Shown here in pieces: positions 23,993 to 24,195 of a stretch of 64,000 bases of DNA; position 1 is the stretch's first letter; every line of letters begins with the position of its first letter. The notes under the pieces are model-generated. The model worked only from the letters and a program-made list of their open reading frames with translations. It was not told the DNA's origin and ran no database searches. Both the position numbers and the translations under genes were made by a program. This stretch comes from Escherichia coli. GTDB lineage: Bacteria > Pseudomonadota > Gammaproteobacteria > Enterobacterales > Enterobacteriaceae. The DNA is taken from NCBI RefSeq assembly GCF_013315695.1, contig NZ_CP054353.1. One strand, given 5' to 3'.

Positions 23993-24076
23993 GGTGGGGT
24001 TCCCGAGCGGCCAAAGGGAGCAGACTGTAAATCTGCCGTCATCGACTTCGAAGGTTCGAATCCTTCCCCCACACCA
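23993..24076 (+). tRNA. tyrT: tRNA-Tyr (GUA), variant copy with 1-nt deletion in the 3' acceptor strand
   Basis: Identical to the downstream copy for 80 nt (D-arm, GUA anticodon loop, long variable arm, T-arm), but the 3' end reads CCCCCACACCA instead of CCCCCACCACCA. Confidence 0.7.
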
Positions 24077-24110
24077 TCTCAAGCATTACCTCAAAATTTG
24101 AATTACCCTT

Positions 24111-24195
24111 GGTGGGGTTCCCGAGCGGCCAAAGGGAGCAGACTGTAAATCTGCCGTCATCGACTTCGAAGGTTCGAATCCTTCCCCCACCACCA
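24111..24195 (+). tRNA. tyrV: tRNA-Tyr (GUA), canonical 85 nt with encoded CCA
   Basis: GGTGGGGTTCCCGAGCGGCCAAAGGGAGCAGACTGTAAATCTGCCGTCATCGACTTCGAAGGTTCGAATCCTTCCCCCACCACCA; 7-bp acceptor stem, anticodon GTA. Confidence 0.95.

Follow-up and report, generated by a model that had tools for sequence, protein, structure and literature searches.

In Escherichia coli, the tRNA-Tyr genes tyrT and tyrV are under the control of a single promoter, and a third tRNA-Tyr gene, tyrU, lies elsewhere in the genome (PMC2887954). The G1-C72 pair and A73 are tyrosine identity elements at the acceptor end of bacterial tRNAs (PMC9976931). The site at which bacterial RNase P cuts is set by the 12-bp stacked acceptor/T helix and by base pairing between its P15 loop and the 3' RCCA (PMC11143913). 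In the su3 tRNA-Tyr, lesions at the top of the acceptor stem impair processing of the precursor. This tRNA precursor is the standard substrate of RNase P (PMC11143913). We analyzed a 64,000-nt stretch of an E. coli genome (hereafter referred to as the window) containing a tyrT-tyrV doublet in which the first gene lacks one C of its 3' acceptor strand. The closest genome found, MSB1_4I (NZ_LR898874.1), differed from the window by 12 substitutions and three one-base indels over the 64,000 nt, and two further relatives, MS 21-1 and AF14, were used to polarize these differences.

The locus is the ordinary purU-tyrT-tyrV-narI region of E. coli (Table 1). This gene order is annotated in the same way in the best-matching RefSeq genomes and in K-12, and the window accordingly contains tandem tRNA-Tyr genes, preceded by a tyrT promoter, between purU and narI. 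The -10 hexamer is directly followed by a G+C-rich discriminator (GCGCCCCGC). We take this promoter to be the classical tyrT promoter. The primer lhm-T2 also supports this identification (PMC2887954). The aligned part of the region upstream from tyrT (23960-23992) was identical in three relatives. An integration scar at the 3' end of a tRNA gene was ruled out: the spacer and flanks are collinear with those of the relatives, with nothing inserted. In the stem of the narI terminator (24342-24345), the window, MS 21-1 and AF14 have a run of four C residues and MSB1_4I has a run of three; this change, private to MSB1_4I, lies 272 nt from the site of the tRNA deletion.

Table 1. Features of the purU-narI region of the window, with the basis for each assignment.
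Feature	Coordinates	Strand	Basis
purU CDS, upstream neighbour	22991..23833	+	Transferred from the MSB1_4I RefSeq annotation; stop codon TAA (23831-23833) read directly
tyrT promoter: -35 TTTACA, 16-nt spacer, -10 TATGAT	23915..23942	+	Consensus scan, 10/12 matches
tRNA-Tyr(GUA) copy 1 (tyrT)	23993..24076	+	ARAGORN; Rfam tRNA, 41.2 bits; RNAfold
Site of the absent C (C71 or C72 of the tRNA)	24072..24073	+	Alignment; pairwise comparison, three genomes
Spacer between the tRNA genes, 34 nt	24077..24110	+	Direct reading
tRNA-Tyr(GUA) copy 2 (tyrV), 85 nt, canonical	24111..24195	+	ARAGORN; Rfam tRNA, 53.4 bits
narGHJI intrinsic terminator hairpin	24339..24360	-	Terminator scan
narI CDS, downstream neighbour	24379..25056	-	Transferred from the MSB1_4I annotation; reverse-strand stop codon read directly

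ARAGORN called two tRNA genes, and no others, in the 64-kb window: a tRNA-Tyr(GTA) at 23993-24075 and another at 24111-24195. Both copies have a GUA anticodon and a long variable arm (ARAGORN), the latter appearing as an 11-nt insert in the Rfam alignment and as a hairpin in the predicted fold. On direct reading, copy 1 runs GGTGGGG...CCTTCCCCCAC-ACCA and copy 2 runs GGTGGGG...CCTTCCCCCACCACCA, the respective 3' ends being CCCCCAC-ACCA and CCCCCACCACCA. The first 80 nt of the two copies are the same, and the only difference between them is the absence from copy 1 of a single C between 24072 and 24073. Copy 1 is therefore 84 nt long with its CCA (23993-24076), rather than the canonical 85 nt of copy 2. 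In an alignment with three related genomes, copy 1 matched their tyrT except for this C: all the relatives have CC at a site at which the window has a single C.

Both copies scored above the 29-bit gathering threshold of the Rfam tRNA model (RF00005), with 41.2 bits for copy 1 and 53.4 bits for copy 2. In the cmscan alignment, the closing pair of copy 1 was flagged as non-canonical, with G1 opposite an A and a C in the discriminator column. RNAfold predicts a cloverleaf for both copies. That of copy 1 (-28.1 kcal/mol) has six base pairs in its acceptor stem, leaves the 5' G unpaired and ends in a 3' ACCA tail; that of copy 2 (-31.7 kcal/mol) has a 7-bp acceptor stem. The G1-C72 pair is thus lost in copy 1 and kept, in a 7-bp stem, in copy 2. 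The ACCA of copy 1 sits one position nearer the T arm than the canonical one of copy 2, and its discriminator reads as a C in the 7-position register of Rfam and as an A in the 6-bp register of the fold. According to these models, G1 of copy 1 is unpaired or, equivalently, the discriminator/CCA register has moved by one position.

The sequence-only reading had described tandem tRNA-Tyr genes, the first of which was one C short in its 3' acceptor strand, and had proposed that this would either leave G1 unpaired in a 6-bp stem or shift the discriminator/CCA register. The doublet and its missing C were found again by ARAGORN, direct reading and alignment, and Rfam and RNAfold agree on the structural consequence. 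The anomaly also withstood the scoring of both copies that it had suggested, in that the scores are unequal and the predicted stem of copy 1 is non-canonical. No compensating change was detected in the 5' acceptor strand or leader of copy 1 in the alignment with the relatives, and a compensated acceptor stem was ruled out, because neither the upstream sequence nor the first 80 nt differ from theirs. Copy 2 belongs fully to the bacterial tRNA-Tyr family. Copy 1 passes the threshold of the sequence model, but in both predictions fails to form the defining 7-bp acceptor stem with G1-C72. The disabling of a conserved structural or identity element is a mark of tRNA pseudogenes, and the element lost from copy 1, G1-C72, is of this kind. 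If the lesion is real, copy 1 would be best described as a tRNA-Tyr gene with a disabling lesion.

A 76-nt query spanning the deletion and the spacer matched none of the RefSeq complete E. coli genomes exactly; the best matches were 98.7% identical and extended over 77 nt in the record, with the extra C present. A second query of 90 nt, consisting of the whole of copy 1 and 6 nt of the spacer, would also detect the deletion in combination with other spacers. All 5,441 records matching this query (5,425 genomes, with about 15,700 tRNA-Tyr places) had less than 99% identity to it, the best being 98.9% identical over 91 nt in the record. The 24-nt 3' end carrying the deletion (GGTTCGAATCCTTCCCCCACACCA) had no exact match among 100,044 bacterial and archaeal species (one genome each), or among 241 million JGI metagenome records. 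A control pattern permitting zero to three bases at the site retrieved at least 120 loci, from Enterobacterales to Thiobacillus and Verrucomicrobia, and the site was CC in all 142 of the control-pattern matches listed, from diverse bacteria. In the collections searched, the deletion thus occurs in the window alone, at an otherwise invariant site.

Several candidate explanations could be rejected on these grounds. A circulating allele was ruled out by the lack of any exact match in RefSeq complete E. coli genomes, the best matches carrying the extra C. Genomes of the Seattle 1946 type, with a 59-nt match, do not share the deletion: they lack a base of the spacer instead, and have a tRNA of 85 nt. 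Gene conversion from a deletion-bearing donor was ruled out, as CCCCCACACCA is found just once in the window and both copy 2 and the relatives are wild type. The sequence-only reading had offered a tRNA pseudogene in the making, strain variation or a sequencing error as explanations, and had called for comparison with other E. coli tyrTV loci. That comparison found the deletion in no other genome. Strain variation, in the sense of a circulating allele, does not survive the examination of the RefSeq complete E. coli genomes (5,425 with a match), the species-representative genomes and the JGI metagenomes, leaving a pseudogene and a sequencing error to be weighed against each other.

The distance between the two genes is a separate matter. 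It had been remarked that the spacer was shorter than that of K-12; this was accurate, the K-12 tyrT-tyrV distance being 209 nt, but the suspicion that 34 nt is odd was not borne out. The K-12 spacer consists of a 175-nt RtT-like unit ending in TCCTTCCCCCACCACCA, followed by the 34 nt of the window with one mismatch. The 34-nt spacer is identical in MSB1_4I and has one mismatch in MS 21-1, and the direct 34-nt junction is present in the closest relatives of the window and in many other E. coli strains. The 4,445 genomes retrieved in the 76-nt search are an upper bound for this junction, because spacers of the K-12 type share the final 19 + 34 nt and may pass the cutoff of 80% coverage. The K-12-type junction was found in 1,921 of 5,426 complete E. 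coli genomes, and 33-nt spacers or point variants occur in some E. coli lineages. A spacing anomaly was therefore ruled out: the short spacing is ordinary between-strain variation at a repeat-built locus. For readers who have K-12 in mind, a 34-nt spacing without RtT is a common E. coli arrangement, and the longer spacer of K-12 occurs in only about a third of complete genomes.

An Rfam covariance search of positions 23800-24400 gave no RtT match at E≤1. Past copy 2, the sequence passes directly into the region next to narI, as it does in MSB1_4I and MS 21-1. Positions 24196-24378 contain no 178-bp RtT/tpr unit 3' of tyrV, and the same is true of these two relatives. One unit follows tyrV in ECCNB12-2 and Seattle 1946, and about three in K-12, which has one further RtT-like unit between its tRNA genes. 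Each RtT/tpr unit terminates in the last 17-19 nt of the tRNA, a pattern suggestive of unequal recombination at the tyrT-tyrV locus. The downstream RtT/tpr repeats are a strain-variable feature, and are not strictly defining for the tyrT-tyrV operon.

The window's private changes comprise, besides the tRNA deletion, three isolated substitutions and one cluster of six differences at 40352-40501. At 33172, a private A-to-C substitution in codon 3 of narX gives NarX K3T; the exact 598-residue NarX K3T protein had no match in a collection of 15 billion proteins. A private substitution at 36223, in ychO, is synonymous. At 45024, in prfA (minus strand), a private A-to-C substitution replaces D with E in release factor 1. 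An identical PrfA protein is encoded by 12 contigs belonging to E. coli lineages that share only about 98% identity with the window, and the loci carrying this allele in those lineages do not extend to the tRNAs. Neither protein variant thus led to a second, independent assembly of the strain. The PrfA allele thus appears to be recurrent or recombined, rather than unique. The private substitutions of the window's lineage, at about 5 x 10^-5 per site, look real.

The cluster at 40352-40501 lies in a tandem repeat of Ldr toxin units (the ldr repeat). Copy A (40200-40610) and copy B (40690-41164) of this repeat are identical over about 410 nt in the window. In the three close relatives, the two copies differ at six positions (five substitutions and a one-base indel, at 40352-40501). 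All six changes in copy A are private to the window, and they agree with the window's own copy B. This cluster may reflect either gene conversion or an artefact of repeat collapse or polishing. The window therefore contains two private indels, both within tandem repeats: one in tRNA copy 1 and one in the ldr repeat. Comparison with the three relatives revealed no other private indel and no private frameshift in any gene across the 64 kb. A generally error-prone assembly was ruled out, the private changes being restricted to three substitutions, the tRNA deletion and one repeat-associated cluster, and the window appears to have no general indel or homopolymer problem.

Other features are shared with relatives. 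At about 61063, in treA, the window and MSB1_4I have a one-base deletion with respect to MS 21-1, and treA of MSB1_4I is annotated as frameshifted in RefSeq. This frameshift is probably a real lineage-specific pseudogene, because it is seen in two independent assemblies. An IS1 element adjoining treA, beyond about 61500, is present in the window and MSB1_4I and absent from MS 21-1. An IS4 transposase gene (about 15785-17131, minus strand) lies between tdk and adhE in the window, MSB1_4I, MS 21-1 and AF14; two of the four substitutions private to MSB1_4I are located within it (15894 and 16225).

We consider it somewhat more probable than not that the missing C is a residual consensus or assembly error in a short tandem repeat of an otherwise accurate assembly. 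This reading is favored because the allele is a singleton, because the base concerned is invariant and functionally critical, and because both private indels fall within repeats. The site is under strong constraint because the lost base, C71 or C72, is part of the G1-C72 pair, a tyrosine identity element. The lack of any compensating change in the 5' strand also speaks for an error. According to the Polypolish paper (PMC8812927), the errors left in polished long-read assemblies tend to persist in repeats. Were the missing C an assembly error, the operon would be an ordinary one, in which the tyrT promoter drives a pair of identical tRNA-Tyr(GUA) genes; both tRNA genes would be normal, and there would be nothing biological to explain.

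Some of the same data point in the other direction. Elsewhere the assembly is clean, no private indels or frameshifts having been found outside repeats over the 64 kb, and the deleted base lies in a run of two C residues, not in the neighboring run of five, where homopolymer errors would be most expected; both observations count against an error and in favor of a real deletion. Furthermore, a typical short read would span the 85-nt repeat, and an error here should therefore have been within reach of polishing, and, by a rough estimate, one genuine private indel per 64 kb is not unexpected at a divergence of about 5 x 10^-5. The alternative is that the deletion is real, very recent and private to the isolate or clone, and that copy 1 is a nascent tRNA pseudogene, null or weak as an allele; this is a serious possibility, to which we give somewhat less than even credence. 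The lineage carries genuine-looking private changes (NarX K3T, the synonymous change in ychO and the D-to-E change in PrfA), so a private indel is plausible at such divergence. The fold and covariance scores show the defect in copy 1, the RNase P cues (PMC11143913) and the tyrosine identity elements (PMC9976931) explain why the lesion would disable the tRNA, and E. coli has three tRNA-Tyr genes (PMC2887954), two of which would buffer the loss of the third.

Nevertheless, the deletion was absent from all the other genomes and metagenomes searched, giving no independent sighting, and one base is not readily lost by spontaneous mutation from a run of only two. Such an allele would also be short-lived under purifying selection and under gene conversion by the identical copy, which lies 118 nt away, and its functional consequences are all inferred. 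In a rough weighing of the sequence evidence, an error comes out as the probable explanation by a little, and a real, recent allele as a credible one that falls somewhat short of probable.

If the deletion is real, the strong tyrT promoter would continue to drive copy 1 together with copy 2, in one transcript. The acceptor and T-arm helix of the copy 1 product would have 11 bp instead of 12, and the RCCA end would be offset by one position with respect to the 5' end. The two cues for RNase P would then disagree by one nucleotide, a mismatch from which slow or mixed cleavage at G1 or G2 would be expected. The mature RNA would lack the G1-C72 pair, so poor charging by TyrRS and turnover would be likely. 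Poor charging and probable degradation would result in a null or weak allele, which would be tolerated given the supply of tRNA-Tyr from tyrV, on the shared transcript, and from tyrU, elsewhere in the genome.

It is very improbable that the deletion is real and the altered 84-nt tRNA functional, with a changed synthetase specificity or as an uncharged regulator or a decoy for nucleases directed at tRNA-Tyr. On such a reading, copy 1 would yield a stable, processed tRNA whose acceptor stem has 6 bp and whose unpaired 5' G faces A73, and mischarging with Gln or His might occur, an outcome that we regard as highly unlikely. Such a molecule would be a naturally occurring case of a bacterial elongator tRNA that works with a shortened acceptor helix. 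The su3 tRNA-Tyr with a broken 1:72 pair is reportedly mischarged with glutamine, and tRNA-His bears an extra 5' G. The geometry of the RNAfold prediction would suit a functional molecule, and host tRNA-Tyr is a target in phage-defence conflicts (PMC11555353), but the allele, a singleton, shows no sign of having spread or been selected in the genomes and metagenomes searched, harm would result if Tyr codons were read by a mischarging tRNA expressed from a strong promoter, and a decoy would not restore translation.

If the missing C is an assembly error, as we tend to believe, it illustrates how, even where an assembly is otherwise clean, a mistake in a single base can persist in a short tandem repeat and give an intact tRNA gene the appearance of a defective one. 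If the loss is real, one copy of a redundant tRNA gene has been caught at inactivation, at a locus known for variation in copy number and repeats. Neither an error nor a mutation constitutes new biology, and there is no new kind of element here. In either case, no new question is raised: the locus carries either an artefact or a private loss-of-function mutation, of an ordinary kind, in a gene that is redundant.

The tyrT-tyrV locus of K-12 MG1655 (b1231/b1230) lies, like that of the window, between purU and narI, and its promoter hexamers are the same as those in the window. Both tyrT and tyrV of K-12 are identical to copy 2 over all 85 nt, and the end of the K-12 spacer corresponds, with one mismatch, to the 34 nt preceding copy 2. 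Unlike the window, K-12 has a 175-nt RtT-like unit in its 209-nt spacer and about three RtT/tpr units after tyrV; the window has no RtT/tpr units, and its copy 1 lacks one C. MSB1_4I is identical to the window in tRNA spacing, in the 34-nt spacer and in the absence of RtT, but has a canonical 85-nt copy 1. The acceptor-stem mutants of the su3 (supF) tRNA-Tyr, from the classical genetics of RNase P and mischarging, likewise have lesions at the top of the stem (positions 1, 2 and 80-82 of the 85-nt tRNA). The su3 mutants carry substitutions selected in an amber-suppressor (CUA) background, whereas the change in the window is a one-base deletion in a wild-type GUA gene.
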